Below, piece by piece: positions 22,213-37,594 of a DNA stretch of 38,213 bases. The position numbers and the translations under genes are program-made. The stretch comes from Deltaproteobacteria bacterium (GTDB taxonomy: Bacteria; Myxococcota_A; UBA9042; DTJE01): contig JADHTP010000003.1 of assembly GCA_016784945.1 (NCBI GenBank), positions 1 to 38,213 of the forward strand. Reading direction: 5' to 3'. A model generated the notes under the pieces. The model had not been told where the DNA came from, did no database searches, and saw only the letters and a list, made by a program, of their open reading frames with translations. The number at the start of each line of letters is the position of its first letter. The stretch's first letter is position 1.

Positions 22213-25200
22213 CTAGTCTTGCCAGTCCCTTTCCACCTTCAGGCGGTGACCGGCGCTGTAGGCGTTGAATTCCGGAGCATACATGGGCTGGGCCGTGGCC
22301 GGGCTGACCTTGAAGGAACCGGCGTGAGCGGCGCGCACGCGGTACTTGAAGGTGTGTTCGCCCTGGGGCAGCCACTCGAAGAAGAAGTTCTGGCCACTGT
22401 CGCGGACCTCTTCGTAGTAGTACAGGCCCAGGTCCCACCGGTGCCGTGAGATCTGGCTGACCGGTTCGAATCCCGCGCCCCGGGGATCCCGCAGGTGGAC
22501 GTATTCCATGGGGTGCTTCGCTCGCAGGGACACCTGCACCTCCACTTCGTCGCCGGGTTGCAGGCTCGCCCCGTCCTCCAGAGGTTCCAGCGTGATGGTC
22601 TTGCCGGTCTTGACCCGCTTGAAGAAGGTGCGGGTCACGGCCAGGAAGTCACCCCGGGCCTCCTCGGGCAGCTTTTCCGTGCTGAAGTGCCAGGTGGCCG
22701 ATGCGAACAGGTGTCCCCTGGTGGCCTTTTCCACGGTGACGGTGTGGTGCTTCGCCCCGTTCACCTCATCGCCGGGAATCACGATCTGGTTCTTCTTCCC
22801 TGTGTATTCGTCGGGTTCGAACGCGAAGTGGGTGACCCGGTCGCCCACGGTCACGTCCACCGCCTCGCGCACGGCCAGTTGTTCCGTGGCCTGCAGGTAG
22901 TGGGCGAGGCTGTACACCACCTCGGCCGTGGCCTTCGTGGACTTCCAGTGGTTCAGTTTCTTGTTCAGGAAGATCCACAGGACCAGGCCGTCCAGCCTGG
23001 CGTTCTTCGGGTCCAGTTCCATGAGGGTGCGGATGGCGAAGGCGTGGGTTTCGATGGTGTCGTTGTACCACAGCCATCCCCGGTCCTCTGGGGCCCAGAA
23101 GGTGCCCTGGTCCTTTTTCGTCTTCGCCGAATCCATCACGCTTTCCCACACCAGGAGGGCGTCCTTCTTCCGGTCCATGCGCGCCAGCGTGAGGGACAGG
23201 TAGCCCTTCAGGTAGGGCGCGTGGTCCTTCCAGTGGCGAAAGCTGAAGTCCAGCATGGTCTGGCGTTCCGCAGCGGTGAACACGCCGCCGGTCCAGGAAT
23301 CGTCGGGGTAGGCGCTGATCACGTAGTTCAGGAAGGCGATGAACTCCCAGCAGCAGTCGTGGGTCATCATGTTCTTCACCAGCTCGTTCACGTAGTGCCG
23401 GTGCATGTAGGCCCAGGCCTTCCGGATCATCTGCTTCGGCACGTCCACCTGGAACTCCAGGCCCTTGGAGAAGCCGTGGAGGATGTACAGGGTCATCCAG
23501 GGGGAGGGCCGGCCACCCGGGAACCACGGGAAGGCGCCGCTGGACGTCTGGGCCTTCTTCAATTTGGCCAGCGCCCCGTTGCGCTGGGCCTTGGCGATGC
23601 GCGGGTCCAGCACGTTCAGCAGGTCGCCCGGGTCCTCGGGGCCGCCCTTGGCCTGCTGCAGCCAGGGGATCTCCTCCAGGGCCATCTTGCGGTTGGGATC
23701 GGCCGCGTCCCAGGTCTCCAGCCGGGTCTCGCGCTGCGAAAGCTTCTTTCCCATGCGCTTGAGCGCCGGGTACTGATCATAGAAGGATGACACGATCCCC
23801 GTGGACAGGAACCGGTTCAGGGTCTGCTCCGTGCATTCGTAGGGATAGTTCACCAAGTAGGGCAGGGCCGACAGGACCTGGTAGAACATCTGGGCGTCCA
23901 CCGTCACCACCAGTTGGTCGTGGATCAGGCTGGGGTCGTCGCTCCTCTTCATGTCATCGAAGGTCATCACGCGTTTTTCGCGGTCCTTCAGGGTCACGAA
24001 CCGCGACTGGGCCAGGTGGAACCGTCCGGGCAGCACCGGGATGGGACGCAGTTCGCCGTCGCTGAAGTCACCGGACATGGCGGAGATCCGGAAGGCCACC
24101 GTGCCCACGCGGTTGGGGGCCTTCACCGGGAACGTCAGGCTGGTCCCACCGCCGGCCTTCACCGTGAAAGGCCTGTCCGTCACGTCGGCGGCCCTGAGGC
24201 CGAATTCCCCCAGCAGGCTCTTTTCGGTGTCGGGATCGATGATGTCAAAGGTCAGGCGGCCCGCCATCTCCGCGTCGGAGGCGTTGTTGACCACCACCTT
24301 CAGCAGGGCGTCGTCCCCCTCCCGCAGGAAACGCGGCAGGTAGGGCCGCACCATGAGGTCCTTGACCGTTCTGGCCTCCTTCTTCACCAGCCCCGATTTC
24401 AGGTCCTCGGTGACCGCGTGGACCCAGATGTTCCAGGAGGTGACCGAATCGGGCACGGTGAACTCGATGGAAGCGGAGCCGTCGGGCCCCGTGACCAGGT
24501 GGGGCTCGAAGAAGGCGGTCTCCGAAAAGTCGCTGCGCATCTGGACCGCGGGCGGTTGCGGGCCGCCCATTTGACCGTCCACGTCATCCCCGTGACCCGA
24601 TGCCTTGGTCTTGTCCGCGAACCGTCCGTCAGCCTTTGTTTCGCCGGCCATCAGGTTGCCGGAGACCTCGGCCTCCTCGGCCACGGACATGTCCATGGAC
24701 ATGGTCTGCCGGGACACTTCCGGTGCGGCGGCCGCGGGCATGGACCTGGCGTGGAACATGCCTCGCCCGGATCCCCCGCCCCCGCGATATCGCCGCCTTC
24801 CCGGACCACCGATGCCGTATCCGCCAAAGAACACCAACTGGTCCTCCTGGAGGTGCGGGTAGGAGGGGAGCGGTGCGAACCCGTTGCTTTGAACCCAGAT
24901 CAGGCGGGCCTGGCCCAGGCTTGACCGCGCCTGCACGGCGCCGGTACGGGCGGGAAAGATCGACTGGGGTGACGCCGGGGAGTGGGCCGCAAAGAGGTCC
25001 AGGGAACGGTCGTACATGTAGGCCAGCACCTCGGCCGCCGATACCGCCGTGTCCCGGCCGGCCGGTCCGGTCACCTTCACGGTCCATTTTTCCTTTGAGC
25101 CGGGCTTCAGAAGGTCGCGGAAGGTGGAGAAGGCGACCTTCAGTTCCTTGTTGTCCCAGGGTACGAAGACCGATTGGGTGAAGCTCATGGTCTGGTGGTC

Positions 25201-28200
25201 GCGGACCGCGGTCAACGTGATGCCGAAGCCGCCACGGTGGTCCTCGGTCACGGGGATCTCGATGAGGGTGGCGTCCCTTCCCGATGTCAGGAGGCGTCGA
25301 TCCACGCGCTTGGAGGCCCGGTAGACGTCCAGGGTCATGGGCTGGTCGTACAGACCGGACACCACCAGGATGCGGGCCGTGCCGCCCACTTTCACGCTGG
25401 GCTTCTCCACCAGGAGGATCGCCGGCAAGGACAGCCGTGAACGGGTGCCCGCCACCACGATTTCCCGTGACATCTCGTATTTCGCGCCGAAGGGATCCGT
25501 GGTCTGGTAATGCAGTCGGTAGGCGCCCGGGTCCAGTGCTGGCAAGGTGACCAGGGCCTCCCCCTGCTTGCCGTGCTCCAGGCGTCCGCGGGAAAGGGTG
25601 CGTCCGTCCTTCCACTCGCGCATCACCGCCTCGGGCCGGTAACCGGGATTCCACCGGGGACGCAATCCGTCCCCCGGGGTCTTGAATTTCTGGCTGGTTC
25701 CGGGCGCCGTATGGACCGGCTGGTGGGCGGGGAGGAGGGTCCTGCGGTCCTGCCGCAGCGAGGTCAGTCGCCAGGTGCCCCTGCCGGGTGCGGGTGTCCC
25801 GTCCAGGTCCGAGCGGATCAGCTTGAGTTCCGAGGATCGGCCTTCCACGAGGAAGCCCGCGTCCATCACCAGTGAGGCCTCCACGGCCACGAAACCGAGC
25901 CGGAAGGACCGGGATGTCGTCCGTGTTTCGCCCCCTTCGTCGGTCACGTCCACGGAGATCGAATACCGGTAGGTGAGGTCGGACGCGCCATCGCCCAGCC
26001 TTTCGTCAGCCTCGGGCGTGAATTCCACGGGGAAGTTCCCGTTTTCATCCAGTTGGGAAGTGCCCGTGGCCACGGTCTGTGAACCCGCGGTTTTCGTGGA
26101 TCCCCAGCCGTACCAGTACCACCACCAGGGGTACACGGCTTCCCTGACCACCCGCCAGTTCGCCGTTCCGTTGGTCACGGGCAGGCCGAAGTAGTACTTC
26201 ACCTCCCCCTTGAGCTTCGCGGGCCGGTTCAGACGGAGGGGATCCTCGGAGTCCAGGAGCCTGGCTTCGAATGTGGGCCTCTTGTACTCTTCCACCTGCA
26301 CCCAGGCGACCCCGCTCAGGGAACTCTGGACCCGCCATCGACCCAGCATGCGGCCCGCCGGGATGTTGAACTCCCCGGACGCCGTTCCGAAGGTGTTGGT
26401 GACCGCGGTCAGGGACTCCACGGTCTGGCTGTTGGCGTCCAGCAGGGACACGGTGATCTTCCTGGACGGGGCCGCCCGGTAGTCCGCCTCGTCGTGCCGG
26501 CCACGATAGACAACGGCCTTCCACAGCAGCTTCTGGGACGGTCGGTAGATGCTGCGGTCGGTGTACACCAACGTGGCGGTTCGTTCCGGTTGCGGGTTCT
26601 GGCGATAGAAATAGAGGTAGCTCTCGTCGATGGCCACCTGCGGGCCCTTCCTGGCAAAGGTGAAGTGCTGCTGGTTGGTCTTCAACCGCTTGAACACGGC
26701 CGTGCCGTCGACGCCGGTCTTCTTCGTGGCCACCCGGCGGTGGCCCTTGTTCCAGTTGTAGGCGTACAGGGACACGCTCGCATTCTCTACCGGCTTCCCG
26801 GTGGCGCCCGATCGCACCGTGACCTCCACCTCGCCGCTCTGTTGGCGGGTCAGCAGCACCAAATCCCCGATCACCAGGGGCACGGCCACGATCCGGTTGT
26901 CGGCCTTGCGGAAATCCTTGTCCGCGGACACCGCCACCACGTACAGGCCGGGCTTGTCCATCGGGGGCGTCACCCAGGCCCTATGGTGTCGGAAGTCCGG
27001 GGTCGCGGCCAAGTCCACGGACCACTCGTGGGTGGGCCGGGCGCCATGGACCAGGCGGTTGGCCTTGCGGTAGTCGGGCAACAGGTTCCAGTCGTCGGAG
27101 GATTCCACCTGGCGTTTCAGGTTCACCGGGTAGGCCCGCAGGTACAGGGTCTTCAGGTTCTTGTAGTTGATGCCCATGCTGCGTTTCCGGGGCCCGTCAC
27201 TCTTCATGGACTCCAGGTTGTAGTCCGGGGCCTCGATGGACTTGACCATGTGCAGGCAGCGCTGTCCGCCCACGCTGTCGGGCCAGGCCTCGTGTCCCTT
27301 CAAGGCGATGCGCCGGGCCCGTATCAGGGCGTCGGGCTCGTCCAGTTGCTGTACGAAACCGGCCAGTTGCGCCCTGCCCATGGCGGACCAGGGGCGGTCG
27401 GCCATGGCGGGAATCCGCTTTTCCAGGTGGGCGCGGATCACGGCGCGGTCGGTGCCTTCCGTGAAGGCGGCGTGGAGCCGTCGCAGGCGTTCCAGGCGTG
27501 CTTCGAAGGCCCCGTTCCTGTTGCCGGAGGCGGTGTGCCAGGATTCGAGGTCTTCCAGCACCGCTACCACCCGGACCAGGGGGTGGGCGGTCCTGTTGCC
27601 CACGATCCGGGGCCTCTCGCCGGGCTTGGAACGCAGGAGATCTTCCAGGTCCAGTCGCCATGTCTCGTTGCTCTGTTCTGGGGTCCATCCCTGGGTGTCG
27701 GAAAGGGTGGCCACGAACAGGTAGGACACCGCGTCACGAAGCGTGGGCCGGATCCCCTCGGGGTAGCCGTTGGGGGTCATGATTTCCTTCAATGTGTCCC
27801 GCGGCAGGGTGCCCAGGACGGCCCGGTTGGACCAGACGGACAGGTAGGCGTCCTTCGCGGCGTCGTGGATCTGGTGCATGGTCCATCGTTTCAGGTCTAC
27901 TTCTTCCGACGACATCACCCGTTCCCGCCGGTTGATTTCCCAGGAATAGGACTGGGCGTAGGTGGTCAGGGAGCGGGCATAGAAAAGGGACAGGGCGGCG
28001 TGTGCCAGTGGTTGTGACGGCCATTCCTGGTCCTTCAGGAAGCGCACCGCGGCTTCGTAGCCGTGTAGGGCCGTGCGCAACTGGACCCAGCGGATGAGGC
28101 TCCGGGCCCATTCCTTGTCGTCACCCGTGGTGACCGCGTCCGCCAGGATCCCCTCCACCACCTTGGATGCCTTTTCGTACTTCTGTTCGCTGATCAGCTG

Positions 28201-28377
28201 GTCGAAGTCCTTTCCGGTGGCCTTGGTTGCGCCGGTCCAGGTCAGGTCCTGCCCCGGGCCCGAATCGGTGGCCAAGGGCACGGATAGCGCGTCGGGGGTG
28301 GGCCCTGCCGTGAGCCCGTTGGTGGCGCAGCTGACCAGGAGTCCCAACAGGGTCGGCAGGACGTGTGTTGACCGCAT
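22213..28377 (-). CDS. Bacterial alpha-2-macroglobulin family lipoprotein with thioester motif
   Basis: Lipobox LLVSC, YTDRSIYRP (MG2), VEEYKRP, RSDFSETAFFEP, PDSVTSW, PRFLREGD, YPYECTEQ thioester and C-terminal PMYAPEF; GGAGG RBS. Confidence 0.95.
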   Translation of the reverse strand: MRSTHVLPTLLGLLVSCATNGLTAGPTPDALSVPLATDSGPGQDLTWTGATKATGKDFDQLISEQKYEKASKVVEGILADAVTTGDDKEWARSLIRWVQLRTALHGYEAAVRFLKDQEWPSQPLAHAALSLFYARSLTTYAQSYSWEINRRERVMSSEEVDLKRWTMHQIHDAAKDAYLSVWSNRAVLGTLPRDTLKEIMTPNGYPEGIRPTLRDAVSYLFVATLSDTQGWTPEQSNETWRLDLEDLLRSKPGERPRIVGNRTAHPLVRVVAVLEDLESWHTASGNRNGAFEARLERLRRLHAAFTEGTDRAVIRAHLEKRIPAMADRPWSAMGRAQLAGFVQQLDEPDALIRARRIALKGHEAWPDSVGGQRCLHMVKSIEAPDYNLESMKSDGPRKRSMGINYKNLKTLYLRAYPVNLKRQVESSDDWNLLPDYRKANRLVHGARPTHEWSVDLAATPDFRHHRAWVTPPMDKPGLYVVAVSADKDFRKADNRIVAVPLVIGDLVLLTRQQSGEVEVTVRSGATGKPVENASVSLYAYNWNKGHRRVATKKTGVDGTAVFKRLKTNQQHFTFARKGPQVAIDESYLYFYRQNPQPERTATLVYTDRSIYRPSQKLLWKAVVYRGRHDEADYRAAPSRKITVSLLDANSQTVESLTAVTNTFGTASGEFNIPAGRMLGRWRVQSSLSGVAWVQVEEYKRPTFEARLLDSEDPLRLNRPAKLKGEVKYYFGLPVTNGTANWRVVREAVYPWWWYWYGWGSTKTAGSQTVATGTSQLDENGNFPVEFTPEADERLGDGASDLTYRYSISVDVTDEGGETRTTSRSFRLGFVAVEASLVMDAGFLVEGRSSELKLIRSDLDGTPAPGRGTWRLTSLRQDRRTLLPAHQPVHTAPGTSQKFKTPGDGLRPRWNPGYRPEAVMREWKDGRTLSRGRLEHGKQGEALVTLPALDPGAYRLHYQTTDPFGAKYEMSREIVVAGTRSRLSLPAILLVEKPSVKVGGTARILVVSGLYDQPMTLDVYRASKRVDRRLLTSGRDATLIEIPVTEDHRGGFGITLTAVRDHQTMSFTQSVFVPWDNKELKVAFSTFRDLLKPGSKEKWTVKVTGPAGRDTAVSAAEVLAYMYDRSLDLFAAHSPASPQSIFPARTGAVQARSSLGQARLIWVQSNGFAPLPSYPHLQEDQLVFFGGYGIGGPGRRRYRGGGGSGRGMFHARSMPAAAAPEVSRQTMSMDMSVAEEAEVSGNLMAGETKADGRFADKTKASGHGDDVDGQMGGPQPPAVQMRSDFSETAFFEPHLVTGPDGSASIEFTVPDSVTSWNIWVHAVTEDLKSGLVKKEARTVKDLMVRPYLPRFLREGDDALLKVVVNNASDAEMAGRLTFDIIDPDTEKSLLGEFGLRAADVTDRPFTVKAGGGTSLTFPVKAPNRVGTVAFRISAMSGDFSDGELRPIPVLPGRFHLAQSRFVTLKDREKRVMTFDDMKRSDDPSLIHDQLVVTVDAQMFYQVLSALPYLVNYPYECTEQTLNRFLSTGIVSSFYDQYPALKRMGKKLSQRETRLETWDAADPNRKMALEEIPWLQQAKGGPEDPGDLLNVLDPRIAKAQRNGALAKLKKAQTSSGAFPWFPGGRPSPWMTLYILHGFSKGLEFQVDVPKQMIRKAWAYMHRHYVNELVKNMMTHDCCWEFIAFLNYVISAYPDDSWTGGVFTAAERQTMLDFSFRHWKDHAPYLKGYLSLTLARMDRKKDALLVWESVMDSAKTKKDQGTFWAPEDRGWLWYNDTIETHAFAIRTLMELDPKNARLDGLVLWIFLNKKLNHWKSTKATAEVVYSLAHYLQATEQLAVREAVDVTVGDRVTHFAFEPDEYTGKKNQIVIPGDEVNGAKHHTVTVEKATRGHLFASATWHFSTEKLPEEARGDFLAVTRTFFKRVKTGKTITLEPLEDGASLQPGDEVEVQVSLRAKHPMEYVHLRDPRGAGFEPVSQISRHRWDLGLYYYEEVRDSGQNFFFEWLPQGEHTFKYRVRAAHAGSFKVSPATAQPMYAPEFNAYSAGHRLKVERDWQD

Positions 28378-32612: not shown

Positions 32613-33076
32613 TTTCGTCGAATCCTCGCCACCACCAGTTGGGCGATCAGGGTGACGCCCGCCGTCACGTACAGCGCGATGGGGACGTACAGGATGGGGA
32701 GTTCGGTTCGCCGGGTCACGGGGCCCGCCATCACCGCCTGCCCGGGAACCTTGTCCAGCAGGACCCATACCCAGAACACCAGGAGGGCCAGGTTGAACGC
32801 CACCAGGCTTCCCGCGGCCACGTTGCGCCCGGCGTACTGGGCCAGGAACCGCAGGGCGATGAACAGCCACAGAAGCACACCCATGAGGGGGTACATCACG
32901 GGGTGCGGGAAGGCCTCGGTGAACACGATCCAGGTCAGGGCGGACGTGGCGGCCAGGTGGATGGTCAGTACGATGGCGGTGAGCCCGTGGATGAGGGTCG
33001 GCAGAACGGTCCTGATCTTGTCCGCATCGGCACGGACCATGGTGCCTACGTTGTGCCGGTCGGCCTTCACTGGCAT
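32609..33076 (-). CDS. Hypothetical 4-TM membrane protein
   Basis: Four hydrophobic segments; overlaps both neighbours in the same-strand run. Confidence 0.6.
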   Translation of the reverse strand: MPVKADRHNVGTMVRADADKIRTVLPTLIHGLTAIVLTIHLAATSALTWIVFTEAFPHPVMYPLMGVLLWLFIALRFLAQYAGRNVAAGSLVAFNLALLVFWVWVLLDKVPGQAVMAGPVTRRTELPILYVPIALYVTAGVTLIAQLVVARIRRK

Positions 33077-34455
33077 TTGCCCACCACCTGAATGTCGTCC
33101 AGGTACACGCCTTCATAAGTGTTGGCGAATCCGTTGACCGTGTCGAACACGAAGGCGACGGCCACGGTGTCTCCCGTATAGAACGCGAGGGACACGTTCA
33201 CCGGAACAAAGGCCCCCGCCGTGTTGGCGAACTGGGGGTACTGGGCCGACGACCACACCGTTGATTCCTGCCCGTCGAGGATCACCACCACGGACAGGAC
33301 GTCCGATGAGGCCACCAGTTCCGTTTCCTTCCACAGCTGGAACCGGAGTTCGGGCTCCAGGGTCTTGGTCAGGTCCAGTTCCGCGAAAACCGCCTTGCCG
33401 CCTACGGGCGTCTGGACGTCCACGTCGTAGGTGTGGGCCGCGGGGTCGCCGAAGTACAGGCTGGACGGTGGGCTGGCCGCGCGATGGGAGTCCACCACCC
33501 AGCCGGGCCCGGCACCGTAAAGCGCAGAAACGGTGAAGCCGCCCAGGCTGCCGTCGTCGAAATCCACGGTCAGCACCGAAGTGGTGCAGCACTCGGGCGA
33601 GGAAACGAGGGTGATCACGCACTCCCCCTTGTCACTGCCCACGGGGATCACGCAGGTGCCCACCTTGCAGGGATCGGTCACCTGGCAGTCCGGGTCGCCG
33701 GTGCAGCACGCCCCCACGGCCGCGTGTTCACAGTACAGGCTCACGCACACGTCCGACGTGCAGGCGTTCCCGTCGTCACATTCCTGGTCATCGGCGCAGC
33801 ACCCCGGGACCTCGGTGTACTCGCAGGCCCCCTTGTCGTTGCAGGTGCCGTCCTTTGTGCAGGGGTCGTCGTCCACGCAGTCTTCGTCGATCTGGCAGCA
33901 ACCGGTGTTGACCCACATACACTTCCCGTCCTGGCAGAAATCGTCGGTGCAGGGATTGGAGTCGTGGCAGTCCAGGTCCTTGCCGCAGCAGTCGCCGCCC
34001 ACCAGGACCGTGTAGGTGCACTTGTTGTTGAAGCAGTCGTCCAGGGTGCAGTCATTGCCGTCGTCGCACTGGGACGCCTTGGTGCAGCATGCCGGGTCCG
34101 GGACATCGTACTGGCATGCGTAGGAGTAGCATGTGTCCGTGGTGCAGGGGTTCTTGTCGTCACAGTCGGCGGGTTCGAGGCAGCACAGTGGTTTGTGCTC
34201 GTACACGCAATTGCCGCCTACGCAGACATCGTCGGTGCACAGGTTGTTGTCGTCGCAGTTCCGCAGGGTGAACTCGCATTTTCCGCCGACGCATGACGGA
34301 ATGGTGCAGGGATCGCCGTCGTCGCACTGTGACATGGACAGGCACTCGGGCGGTGGCCCGGGATCCGGCGTGGTGTTGATTTCGTCGCCACCTCCGCACC
34401 CGACCCAGATCAGGACCAGGGACAGGACGGCACACTTCCCTGTCGATGCGATCAT
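33067..34455 (-). CDS. Cys-rich repeat lipoprotein (8 x C-D-D-x-N/D-x-C-T-x-D-x-C repeats) with C-terminal MAM-like beta-sandwich
   Basis: ATG 34455 follows AGGTGG. Lipobox IWVGC, eight Dictyostelium-CTDC-like repeats, then DFDDG...W...SLYFG...EGVYLDDIQV. Confidence 0.8.
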   Translation of the reverse strand: MIASTGKCAVLSLVLIWVGCGGGDEINTTPDPGPPPECLSMSQCDDGDPCTIPSCVGGKCEFTLRNCDDNNLCTDDVCVGGNCVYEHKPLCCLEPADCDDKNPCTTDTCYSYACQYDVPDPACCTKASQCDDGNDCTLDDCFNNKCTYTVLVGGDCCGKDLDCHDSNPCTDDFCQDGKCMWVNTGCCQIDEDCVDDDPCTKDGTCNDKGACEYTEVPGCCADDQECDDGNACTSDVCVSLYCEHAAVGACCTGDPDCQVTDPCKVGTCVIPVGSDKGECVITLVSSPECCTTSVLTVDFDDGSLGGFTVSALYGAGPGWVVDSHRAASPPSSLYFGDPAAHTYDVDVQTPVGGKAVFAELDLTKTLEPELRFQLWKETELVASSDVLSVVVILDGQESTVWSSAQYPQFANTAGAFVPVNVSLAFYTGDTVAVAFVFDTVNGFANTYEGVYLDDIQVVGKCQ

Positions 34456-34630
34456 GCTTTTCCACCTGATGGACCAGTTCGAATGATAGCAGTTCATTTC
34501 TCGATGAGCGACCAAACGATCGACGATCATCGTGGCCAGCGCCTTCCGCCCTTCTGGTGACACCATCGGGCAATTGGGAATATCATTGTCCGGTTCGGGC
34601 GAACTGGGCCCGAGTACAGCAGGTATGCCA

Positions 34631-35179
34631 ATGGATTTGTCCTTACGGCTCGCGATTCCCAAGGGACGGCTCGAAGGCGCCGTCCTCGAATTGCTGGATG
34701 ACATCGGCCTCGACCCGGGCCGGAACGCCCGTTCCTATCGCCCCTCGGTGACGGCGCCCGATATTGCCGTCAAGATGTTCAAGCCCCAGAACATCCCGGA
34801 TCTGGTGGGCCTGGGATCGGCCGATGCGGGATTCACCGGTGGGGACTGGGTGGCCGAATCGGGCGCAGACGTGACCGGCGGCCGGGTGGTCAAGGGGACG
34901 CAGTTCGTGGGCCTGCGCGACGCGGGCAATCCCGTGGACCTGGCGGCCCGCTATTACCGGGAGGGCGCCGACGAGATCTTCTTCCTGGACATCACCGCCA
35001 GCGTGGATGGTCGGGATATCACCCTGGACGTGCTGCGGTCCGGGGCCGAGAAGGTGTCCGTGAATACGGCGGCCGTCAAGGACCCGTCCCTGGCGGCCTC
35101 CATTTTCCATTTCGGCGAGTACACCGTGGGGGACGTGAAAGAGTACCTGATCAGTGGCGGTGTGCCGGTGAGACTGTAA
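34631..35179 (+). pseudogene. hisG/hisF: In-frame mosaic of hisG N-terminus (to ~34873) and three separated pieces of hisF
   Basis: HisG part: [10 protein letters not shown]...[23 protein letters not shown]. HisF parts: [19 protein letters not shown]...GADE..FLDITAS | [17 protein letters not shown] | [18 protein letters not shown]...GVPVR. Confidence 0.85.
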
Positions 35180-35194
35180 GGCAGGAGAGTATTC

Positions 35195-36418
35195 ATGCTG
35201 GTTCCGAGCATCGACTTGATGGACGGCAAGGCGGTCCAGCTCAAACACGGAAAGGAGAAGGTCCTGGAAAGAACCGATGTGCTGGAACTGGCCGAGCGGT
35301 TCGGGCGCGTGGGCGAAATCGCCGTGGTGGACCTGGACGCCGCCATGGAGAAGGGTGACAACGAGGAACTGATCCGGAAGATCGTCCGCGTGGCGGCCTG
35401 CCGGGTGGGCGGCGGAATCCGGACGGAAGACCACGCACGACGCCTGCTCCGGGCCGGGGCACACCGAGTGATCATCGGGACGGCGGCGTCCCGGGAGTTC
35501 CTGTCCCGCCTGCCCCGCCACCGGGTCATCGTGGCCCTGGATTCCATCAAGGGCGACGTGGTCACGGAAGGCTGGACCCGGTCCACGGGCAAGACACCCG
35601 TGGAACAGATGCAGATCCTCGCTCCCCATTGCAACGGGTTCCTGTGCACCTTCGTGGAAACAGAGGGGACCATGGAAGGAATCCCCATGGAACGGGTGAA
35701 AGAACTGGCCTCCGCCACCAAGCTGCCCCTCACCGTGGCCGGGGGCGTGAAGGGTCTGGACGAAGTGGTGGCCATCGACAAGGAGGGCGTGGACGTTCAG
35801 GTGGGCATGGCAATCTACACGGGCGCCATGGACGTGTCCGACGCCTTCGTGTCCTGCGTGGACTTTTCCAAGGGGCTGGTCCCCACGGTGGTCCAGGACG
35901 GGAACGGTCAGGTCCTGATACTGGCCTATTCCAGCCCCGAGTCCCTCAAGCAGGCCATTGAAACGGGCCGTGGCACCTATTACTCCCGGTCCAGGGAATC
36001 CCTGTGGGTCAAGGGCGAAACGTCGGGCAATACCCAGGGCCTGGTCCGGGTCATGGCCGACTGCGACCGGGACGCTCTCCTGTTCGTGGTGGATCAGAAG
36101 GGGATGGCCTGCCACCGGGGCACCTATTCGTGCTTTGACGGGGGTGAAAAGCAGTTCAACCTCGGGACTCTCTTCGACGTGATCATGGAGCGACGGCAGA
36201 GTCCCCGGCCCGGTTCCTACACGTCCTTCCTGTTCGAGAAAGATGACCGCATCCCCCGCAAGCTCAACGAAGAGGTGTACGAACTGCTGACGGCCCAGAG
36301 CCACGACGACGTGGTCTGGGAGGCGGCGGACGTGCTGTACTTCATGCTGACCTACGCGGCGAAACGCGGGGTTGCCCTGGAAGAAATCGTGGTGGAGCTG
36401 CGGGGCAGGGAACGATGA
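35195..36418 (+). CDS. hisA/hisIE: Trifunctional HisA-like isomerase + phosphoribosyl-AMP cyclohydrolase (HisI) + phosphoribosyl-ATP pyrophosphatase (HisE) fusion
   Basis: PSIDL.DGKAVQL, VDLD, VGGGIR and AGGV (HisA); GLVP.VVQD, YYSRSR..LW.KGETSG, DCDRD and ACHRG..SCF (HisI); GSYT..L, KL.EE and WEAAD (HisE). Confidence 0.9.
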   Translation: MLVPSIDLMDGKAVQLKHGKEKVLERTDVLELAERFGRVGEIAVVDLDAAMEKGDNEELIRKIVRVAACRVGGGIRTEDHARRLLRAGAHRVIIGTAASREFLSRLPRHRVIVALDSIKGDVVTEGWTRSTGKTPVEQMQILAPHCNGFLCTFVETEGTMEGIPMERVKELASATKLPLTVAGGVKGLDEVVAIDKEGVDVQVGMAIYTGAMDVSDAFVSCVDFSKGLVPTVVQDGNGQVLILAYSSPESLKQAIETGRGTYYSRSRESLWVKGETSGNTQGLVRVMADCDRDALLFVVDQKGMACHRGTYSCFDGGEKQFNLGTLFDVIMERRQSPRPGSYTSFLFEKDDRIPRKLNEEVYELLTAQSHDDVVWEAADVLYFMLTYAAKRGVALEEIVVELRGRER

Positions 36419-36619
36419 AGCGCGTGCACTACAGCGAACTGAACGCCGGGTTGCTGGCCCCCGCGAAGCCCGACCCGGACGTGTCAAAGGCCGTGATGGC
36501 CATTTTCGACACCGTGGAATCCGAAGGGGACGACGCGGTCCGGCGATACGCCGGGAGTCTGGACGGCCCGGGCCGAGGGTCTTTTCGGCTACGAAGCCGC
36601 GGCCAGGCGTCGCCAGTAG
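36415..36619 (+). pseudogene. hisD: Histidinol dehydrogenase remnant (N- and C-termini joined by a large deletion)
   Basis: The N-terminus V..I.D.V..EGDDAVRRY...LDG runs to ~36569. A shifted frame from 36566 reads ARAEGLFGYEAAARRRQ* (TAG 36617-36619), resembling the HisD end (AEGLxAHAxAxxxR). Confidence 0.7.
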
Positions 36620-36655
36620 TCCGGCAGGAGAATCCAGAAAACTGAGGGTTGGCGT

Positions 36656-37594
36656 CTAACGACGGCCGTACCTGGTGCGCAACACCAGGGCCGCCACGAC
36701 CCAGGTGAGGAACAGCCACGGTAGGCCGCTCATGGGGCGGGGACCGGCGGTGCATCCGATGTCGCCACCGTCACCGGCTGCCGCCTTTTCTTCGGGGGCG
36801 GGGGACGTGGGGTCCTGGGGGCTCCCTGTGCCGTCGTTCTGGGAACCGCCCAGGCTGGCAAAGGCACTGTCCGGCGAGGATTCGGACCCCTGGTAGCCCG
36901 CACCGGACCAGCCGCCGGGAAGGCAGGCCTTATCGCCCGGGTCGTCGCATTCACAGGGCGGGCAGTCGCATTCTGGGACCTCGGGACAGTCGTCGTCGGC
37001 GGGACAGACCATCCCCGTGCACACGCACGGGGCGCATCCGCAGGGGACGGGGATCGCCTCGCACTCCCATCCGTCCGGGCAGTCGGACACGTCTTCACAG
37101 GCCTGCTGGGCGGGCATGCACCAGGCACCATCCACTTCGCACTGCTCCTGGAAGTCGTCTGGATTGCAGTCACATTCGATGACTTCAGGGCAATCGCAGG
37201 GCGGGCACTCGACGTCCGGTGGGCAGGTGGGACAGGCGCAGGCCGAGCAGGCGCATCCCGACCCCTGGCAGGATTCTACTTCCACGCATTCGAACCCGGC
37301 CTCACAGTCGTCGTCCTTGGTGCATTCCACCGGGTCGTACCGGCACATCTTTACCGTCTTGGTTTCACAGGGTTCGGGTTCGGGACAGGGGTCGCACTGG
37401 CACGGCGGGCACTCTCCTTCCGGGGGACAGAGGCAGGGGCAGGGCGGGCAGTCCGGCGCCGTGGCGCAGGGCAAGGTGACCTCTTCACACTGGAATCCGT
37501 AGGGGCAGTCCGCGTCAACGGTGCAATCGTCATCGGCCATGGCCGTCATCGGCACCGCCATCAGCAGGGCCGTCATGAACACCCGGATCTTCAT
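36656..37594 (-). CDS. Secreted ultra-Cys-rich protein with MYXO-CTERM-like sorting tail
   Basis: Signal peptide (…TAMA|DD) and 45 Cys by my count. A Ser/Pro/Gly linker leads to GC, a hydrophobic helix and RTRYGRR; GGAGG RBS. Confidence 0.8.
   Translation of the reverse strand: MKIRVFMTALLMAVPMTAMADDDCTVDADCPYGFQCEEVTLPCATAPDCPPCPCLCPPEGECPPCQCDPCPEPEPCETKTVKMCRYDPVECTKDDDCEAGFECVEVESCQGSGCACSACACPTCPPDVECPPCDCPEVIECDCNPDDFQEQCEVDGAWCMPAQQACEDVSDCPDGWECEAIPVPCGCAPCVCTGMVCPADDDCPEVPECDCPPCECDDPGDKACLPGGWSGAGYQGSESSPDSAFASLGGSQNDGTGSPQDPTSPAPEEKAAAGDGGDIGCTAGPRPMSGLPWLFLTWVVAALVLRTRYGRR

Follow-up and report, generated by a model that had tools for sequence, protein, structure and literature searches.

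The window analysed here, a stretch of 38,213 nucleotides that makes up the entire contig C216 of a metagenome-assembled genome (G000; 2.73 Mb in 247 contigs, 68% complete), carries towards its end the remains of a histidine biosynthesis operon (Table 1). An open reading frame of 182 uninterrupted codons (34631-35179, forward strand; ATG at 34631, TAA at 35177-35179) joins HisG residues 1-82 to HisF residues 11-65, 93-112 and 228-255, and is followed by an intact hisA-hisI-hisE fusion gene (hereafter hisA-IE) and by a remnant of hisD. The public annotation holds only a 134-aa product (P0121) at 34775-35179, read from Met49 of this mosaic, which hides the HisG-derived part. Genes for Cys-rich, probably secreted proteins flank the his relics at 33067-34455 (-) and 36656-37594 (-); the upstream protein combines Dictyostelium-type CTDC repeats with a weak MAM-like C-terminus, the downstream, converging gene starts 10 nt past the hisD remnant frame, and several paralogues of these proteins are encoded elsewhere in the genome. 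The window also contains a 2054-codon open frame at 22213-28377 (-).

Table 1. Features of the his region of the window, with the comparison on which each rests.
Feature	Position	Strand	Basis
Promoter-like site, GTGACA-18-TATCAT	34557..34586	+	10/12 consensus matches; 1 found vs 0.4 expected
hisG remnant, codons 1-82 of ~286	34631..34876	+	78/82 identical to intact HisG P0002 (286 aa); 80.5% identical to syntenic G001 hisG
Junction 1, hisG to hisF, GAC GTG ACC (Asp-Val-Thr)	34868..34876	+	DNA/codon comparison with relatives
hisF piece 1 (HisF residues 11-65)	34868..35032	+	49/55 identical to intact HisF P0004 (255 aa); blastn to G001 hisF nt 40-233
Junction 2 zone, 81-nt (27-codon) in-frame deletion in hisF	35030..35061	+	Aligns to both G001 hisF places
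hisF piece 2 (HisF residues 93-112)	35033..35092	+	16/20 to P0004, 17/20 to P0003
Junction 3, CC CTG G, 345-nt (115-codon) in-frame deletion, HisF 113-227 lost	35088..35093	+	DNA comparison with relatives
hisF piece 3 (HisF residues 228-255) and native hisF stop	35093..35179	+	23/28 to P0004; TAA 35177-35179
Intact hisA-hisI-hisE fusion gene, 407 aa	35195..36418	+	Pfam; G001 comparison
hisD remnant, ORF of 76 codons	36415..36645	+	tblastn of G001 HisD

Protein alignment to intact HisG and HisF of relatives (P0002 and P0004) bears out the preliminary description of this locus, which saw in one frame about 80 aa of HisG and three non-adjacent HisF segments, and the junctions that it placed at 34868-34873, 35027-35032 and 35088-35093 coincide with those found against the relatives' genes. 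In Pfam searches the mosaic matches His_biosynth with 62.5 bits (E 5.3e-17) over residues 80-136, its best HisF stretch corresponding to profile positions 7-66 of 228 (PF00977), while the N-terminal HisG stub stays below threshold (20.9 bits vs a cut-off of 25.5) because only profile positions 1-30 of 158 are left. Descent from hisG is evident from the protein identity over 82 residues and from the position of the remnant, which lies behind the Cys-rich gene exactly as hisG does in the sister species G001.

What is left of the two enzymes amounts to about 29% of HisG (82 of about 286 residues) and 40% of HisF (103 of 255). The full HisG catalytic domain (PF01634 plus HisG_C) is missing, as residues 83-286 of the intact relative have no counterpart, and the HisF pieces fall short of a complete eight-unit (beta-alpha)8 barrel (PF00977). 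The second catalytic Asp of HisF (Asp130 of strand 5 in Thermotoga numbering) falls in the deleted region 113-227, and the assembly, at 68% completeness, contains no hisH for the partner subunit. The catalytic N-terminus of HisF, at first thought to be gone, has been lost in part: its first 10 codons are missing, but junction 1 still carries the Asp-Val codons of the CLDV motif. Given how few residues of either protein remain, the mosaic would be unable to act as a HisG or HisF enzyme and is most likely a non-enzymatic relic. A structure predicted by AlphaFold2 (mean pLDDT 33.5, pTM 0.27) was computed from the single sequence without an alignment and is uninformative on foldability.

Over positions 34300-36800 the junctions are covered by assembled contigs, as opposed to raw reads, of four sequencing runs. 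In run X1, which may be the source of the window itself, one contig spans the whole interval without a difference. In run X6, from a different study, one contig covers 34304-36797 with eight substitutions and no gaps, and reproduces all three junctions, hisA-IE and the hisD stub. Runs X10 and X12 yielded short identical fragments alone, none of which bridges a junction; those of X12 (labelled metatranscriptomic, but probably DNA) lie at 34381-34531, 35210-35485 and 35597-35747, and while none falls on the mosaic, gaps in such contig cover prove nothing. A protein identical to the mosaic is on record on six contigs, and a variant with two changed residues (L135V, I174V) on eight, from several sources. 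Since the X6 contig from another study spans every junction, the mosaic is confirmed as real DNA and is not a one-off assembly error.

The likely parental arrangement is found in G001, a species of the same genus, in which an intact operon runs hisG, hisC-HAD fusion, hisB, hisH, hisF, hisA-hisI-hisE, hisD. Its upstream neighbours are those of the window (thiD, a membrane protein and a Cys-rich secreted protein, all on the opposite strand), and the window's downstream neighbours, a Cys-rich protein and an HD protein, are adjacent on another G001 contig. That contig also encodes a 592-aa secreted protein, for which we found no match in G000, and a flavodiiron-like gene, for which G000 holds a partial match alone (57% over 137 residues, contig C114). 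A further intact his operon (L016) was among the 80 loci returned by a scan, with the mosaic, of a metagenome contig set that may lack records close to the window's genome; none of the 80 contains the mosaic itself. With intact syntenic orthologues in G001 and essential parts lost in the window, the mosaic can be ascribed to deletion from an ordinary operon, as had been proposed. Measured against G001, junction 1 corresponds to a loss of about 3.8 kb, which removed hisC-HAD, hisB and hisH entirely, together with the 3' 70% of hisG and hisF codons 1-10. Within hisF, the register of the mosaic relative to the G001 gene shifts by 81 nt and then by 345 nt; these losses uphold the claim that the rest of hisG and two internal hisF blocks are gone.

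A fourth loss, which the preliminary description had overlooked, affected hisD. About the first 51 codons of the remnant (to 36567) are homologous to hisD; beyond them the frame runs on through 25 codons of unrelated sequence to a stop. Some 380 hisD codons are lost, and this deletion kept no frame. The G001 contig used for comparison itself ends within hisD. The remark that hisH is missing from the window proved correct and extends to the whole assembled genome (68% complete), in which we likewise found no match to IGPD or Histidinol_dh and no second HisG or HisF, although unassembled DNA may hold such genes. The organism is predicted to need external histidine.

All three junctions within the mosaic fall on short similarities between the parental sites, read here from proxy relatives at about 77% nucleotide identity instead of from the direct parent. 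Junction 1 lies in the CLDV motif of hisF and at the end of the retained part of hisG; Asp-Val is encoded there in the hisF of all four relatives and in G001 hisG, Asp-Val-Thr is common to HisG P0005 and HisF P0004, and the two sites share 5-9 nt in the proxies. At junction 2 (codons GAC GTG / CTG CGG, 35027-35038), mosaic nucleotides 400-431 (35030-35061, 32 nt) align to both parental places in G001 hisF. The arms are codon-aligned homeologous hisF stretches, V-V-R-A-V-A-E-x-V and V-L-R-A-G-A-E-K-V, which lie exactly 27 codons apart and are identical at 19-25 of 36 nt in each of the four relatives. At junction 3 both parental sites encode D-x-x-L, and the shared bases number 6 (G CTC G) in the G013 and G008 proxies and just 2 in G001. 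The preliminary account seems largely sound as to mechanism: codon-aligned similarities at every junction would fit microhomology-mediated deletion, with exact repeat lengths that are estimates from proxies. As for the order of events, which had been described as three successive deletions, no intermediate form occurs among the best 120 of 7997 matches, and one complex event also fits.

Two further observations concern the junctions. The first base of the junction-2 codon, position 35033, carries a C/G polymorphism between strains, one of eight differences over 2.5 kb, which toggles between the left-parent-like GTG (Val) and the right-parent-like CTG (Leu). The polymorphism may be fortuitous, may derive from a mismatch in the deletion intermediate that later segregated, or may mark two separate breakpoints. 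The sequence at junction 3 (35084-35106, +) shows a weak terminator-like pattern of a 5-bp stem and a T-rich run, which probably arose by chance, as three such sites occur in the region against 1.5 expected.

Why the frame survived three deletions can be judged from how often short repeats in such genes share a codon phase. For exact matches between hisG and hisF in four relatives, with k = 5-8, the phase-matched fractions were 0.60, 0.67, 0.75 and 0.83, and for matches within hisF they were 0.55, 0.59, 0.64 and 0.67; GC3 in the genes of those four relatives is 0.75-0.95. With 55-83% of short exact matches in phase, the joint chance of three in-frame events without selection is about 0.18-0.37, and not (1/3)^3 = 0.037. 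Keeping the frame three times therefore needs no selection. Of the two explanations first offered, these figures favour that of codon-aligned repeats, with all three junctions on similarities of the same codon phase.

The gene downstream of the mosaic is intact, as had been claimed. All three Pfam domains of hisA-IE exceed their cut-offs (His_biosynth 152.4, PRA-CH 105.8 and PRA-PH 52.6 bits), its HisI and HisE motifs align with those of operon copies, and its product aligns with that of G001 over 407 of 407 residues without gaps, at 85% identity. The two strains differ in this gene by four non-synonymous changes (K22N, M212I, N237I, W271R) and one synonymous change, none of which falls in HisE; the Trp at W271 is shared by every one of the 13 window-type and operon-type copies in the alignment. 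These changes fit a beginning decay of HisA and HisI, in numbers too small to test. In a tree of HisA-IE proteins (below), the branch of the window genome (0.078) is not longer than that of G001 (0.083), as would be expected if constraint has continued or if the loss is very recent.

To place this gene in context, we examined the family to which the window genome belongs, and a HisA-IE-like frame without stops is present in all 19 other genomes. We fetched 16 HisA-IE-like loci outside operons (L102-L116, L130), from genera g2-g7. All 16 lie at the site that hisA-IE occupies in the window: the gene adjoins the membrane and/or Cys-rich gene in 15 of them (the sixteenth begins at a contig end), is followed by an HD gene in four, and has no other his gene beside it in any, so that it usually stands alone. 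IGPD was found in 13 of the 20 family genomes. Six genomes that are 86-97% complete (G002, G003, G004, G015, G017 and G019) gave no match to IGPD, hisG or hisF, and in the five of these that were searched for the HisG and HisD families, neither was matched. Where genomes of the genera with the same-site gene do contain IGPD, a second his operon, including a hisA-IE of its own, lies elsewhere in the genome.

We built a tree of 31 HisA-IE proteins, leaving out three partial rows. The second-operon copies group in it as a clade together with copies of other families (support 100/99), same-site copies branch in step with the genera, and branches are short for the window-type copies (G000, G001, G008, G013 and one metagenome contig). 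Constraint in the same-site copies has shifted to HisE. In all eight pairs compared, dN/dS was 0.02-0.06 for HisE vs 0.09-0.31 for the HisA-like and 0.13-0.28 for the HisI-like part; in two pairs of operon copies, by contrast, HisE was the least constrained domain (0.15, 0.21). In Pfam searches, all 11 same-site copies examined score above the cut-off for PRA-PH, five do so for His_biosynth and none for PRA-CH, while two controls have all three domains. The HisI motifs (WVKGETSGN, DCDRD, ACH..SCF) are lost in the same-site copies, and the HisA motifs often so. The family thus retains a HisA-IE gene at this locus whether or not the pathway is present, and the constraint on it rests with HisE, which suggests that the HisE domain has a histidine-independent role. 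In one genome, G007 (89% complete), the operon hisA-I (L125, on contig C13) ends after HisI and lacks HisE, and the sole strong PRA-PH match is the lone same-site gene on contig C157; there, the retained HisE of the lone gene may still serve the histidine pathway.

We also considered whether the lone gene might be ancestral, with an operon built around it in two genera. For the window this is rejected, as the relic holds hisG, hisF and hisD fragments. In the other genera the direction towards loss would follow from the degenerate HisA and HisI domains and from a spacer motif shared between loci, and a tblastn search (E up to 5) for his remnants in 15 lone-gene spacers (98-317 nt) gave nothing consistent. 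In 14 of 15 lone-gene loci, a near-palindromic motif (TGATA(C/T/A)CAT-like) is found 58-95 nt upstream of the HisA-IE-like start and some 25-30 nt away from where the divergent Cys-rich gene begins. It was matched in 15 of 17 spacers vs a mean of 2 in shuffles, and variants occur in the window (TGATAGCAG, about 34481-34492) and in G001 (TGATAACAG). Possible readings are an extended -10 element and an operator.

The promoter-like site lies about 45 nt upstream of the mosaic ATG, and as the same AATATCAT stretch precedes hisG in G001, it is likely to be the retained his promoter. At the other end, 15 nt separate the native hisF stop from hisA-IE, a gene that does not overlap the relic and has a ribosome-binding site of its own, AGGAGAG. 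The mosaic would, we infer, be translated passively as a leader of the hisA-IE transcript. A different account of the same features is that selection kept the frame, the relic being translated either to avoid polarity, by which early termination would leave RNA bare of ribosomes and so reduce hisA-IE transcription, or to deliver ribosomes to hisA-IE. Its premise, that hisA-IE matters to the cell, does hold, for this is clearly a kept gene in the family; the promoter-like site, the start codon and the native hisF stop are all preserved, all three internal deletions are in frame, and neither of two alleles contains a stop. Yet the chance of three in-frame events is 0.18-0.37 even without selection, hisA-IE has a ribosome-binding site of its own and does not overlap the relic, and the fourth deletion, in hisD, kept no frame. 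At the 15 other same-site loci, moreover, the HisA-IE-like gene follows a non-coding spacer of 98-317 nt with no detectable remnant of a leader frame, so that a leader is unneeded there. On balance we regard selection against polarity as unlikely.

Less likely still is that the mosaic is a new functional protein under selection, with a binding, regulatory or scaffold role. Its frame is intact in two alleles from different studies: no stop or frameshift interrupts the 549 nt, and the alleles differ by two conservative replacements (L to V, I to V), as would also suit a young but selected frame. However, the two changes are both non-synonymous, with no synonymous change beside them, and so give no hint of constraint on the relic (too few, from two strains, to test for relaxed selection), and the mosaic occurs only in this species' cluster of three sequences among 7997 scored matches. 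Most of both parent folds is also gone, including the 115 HisF residues between 112 and 228; junction 3 leaves about five residues between two parallel strands, presumably too few for the usual helix crossover of the HisF fold. Finally, that the junctions are assembler mis-joins or a binning artefact would suit a metagenome-assembled genome inspected through contigs and not reads, but is scarcely credible against an independently sequenced and assembled run with only point differences, 14 contigs of the mosaic or its variant from several sources, flanking synteny unbroken on both sides, and junction similarities (at most 9 nt exact, or imperfect at 19-25 of 36) far below assembler word size.

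We thus return to decay, and consider it probable that the mosaic is a chimeric gene relic and not an enzyme, left by an ancestral operon that lost all but hisA-IE through at least four deletions. One of these would have joined hisG codon 82 or so to hisF codon 11 or so, two would have taken 27 and 115 codons inside hisF, and one would have left hisD with about 51 codons. Junctions on same-phase similarities would be the commonest product of slipped mispairing or microhomology-mediated deletion in GC3-rich coding DNA, which makes the open frame of the mosaic largely a by-product. With the his promoter, hisG start and hisF stop apparently retained, transcription from the old promoter probably runs through the relic into hisA-IE. 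The latter was probably spared for a function independent of the pathway, which, to judge from the relatives, would most likely reside in the C-terminal HisE (PRA-PH, MazG-like) domain.

As the operon of G001 is intact, the reduction in the window is independent and recent, and represents a second approach to the lone hisA-IE state. Taken together, these results can be read as the early phase of a second, independent operon reduction to a lone hisA-IE, kept for a histidine-independent role of HisE as a MazG-like pyrophosphohydrolase; we offer this joint reading tentatively, giving it slightly less than an even chance. On such a course, HisA and HisI would drift into a scaffold after loss of the pathway, as in the six relatives in which no other his gene was matched, the HisI allele W271R would be a first step towards decay, and the C/G polymorphism at 35033 could be either the scar of a mispaired intermediate or a sign that the junction-2 deletion arose twice.

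Taken alone, the mosaic is ordinary as a product of gene decay, though uncommonly tidy, and it is the context of the locus that is moderately interesting. Two features are unusual: the relic is an open chimera with three junctions, and it records how an operon was taken apart while a single multidomain gene within it was kept. Neither such a mosaic nor a phase bias of microhomology is described in the titles and abstract openings of the literature consulted, or under the terms searched for in PMC1963479; degenerate HisA-IE copies that retain HisE are likewise absent from those titles and abstract openings. In GC-rich genomes, in-frame junctions are an expected result of short-homology deletion, so little can be concluded about function from an open chimeric frame. 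The locus also illustrates how a single operon gene persists at one chromosomal position while the pathway is lost repeatedly, with constraint moving onto one of its domains, a pattern that points to an unrecognized histidine-independent role for HisE-type pyrophosphohydrolases. The series from intact operon through relic stage to lone degenerate gene offers a natural view of operon dismantling and of the repurposing of a multidomain enzyme.

Gene remnants from the deletional decay of biosynthetic operons are commonplace in bacteria that lose a pathway by reductive evolution. The present case is similar in that an operon was removed piecemeal and in that relatives have also lost the pathway (IGPD in 13 of 20 genomes), and differs in that the pieces form one open chimera of two genes and three junctions, with an internal gene spared. 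In the classical genetics of laboratory Salmonella, deletions joining neighbouring his genes gave fusion polypeptides. As in those fusions, the beginning of one his gene continues in frame into the end of another, giving one chain; the Salmonella fusions, however, were selected for retained enzyme activity, whereas the mosaic is natural, has lost most of both folds and is probably inactive. The internal repeats of HisF and HisA are (beta-alpha) units that arose by gene elongation, according to the summary of PMC7284861, and junction 2 likewise falls between paralogous stretches 27 codons, or about one module, apart; here the repeat would have served as a substrate for deleting a module and not for building a barrel. 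HisA-IE-type fusions were also seen in other phyla in our analysis. Bifunctional HisIE and trifunctional HisA-HisIE fusion enzymes are known from the summary of PMC10242683, and the gene downstream of the mosaic resembles them, with three domains above the Pfam cut-offs, whereas the same-site copies of other genera keep HisE without the HisI motifs and often without those of HisA.
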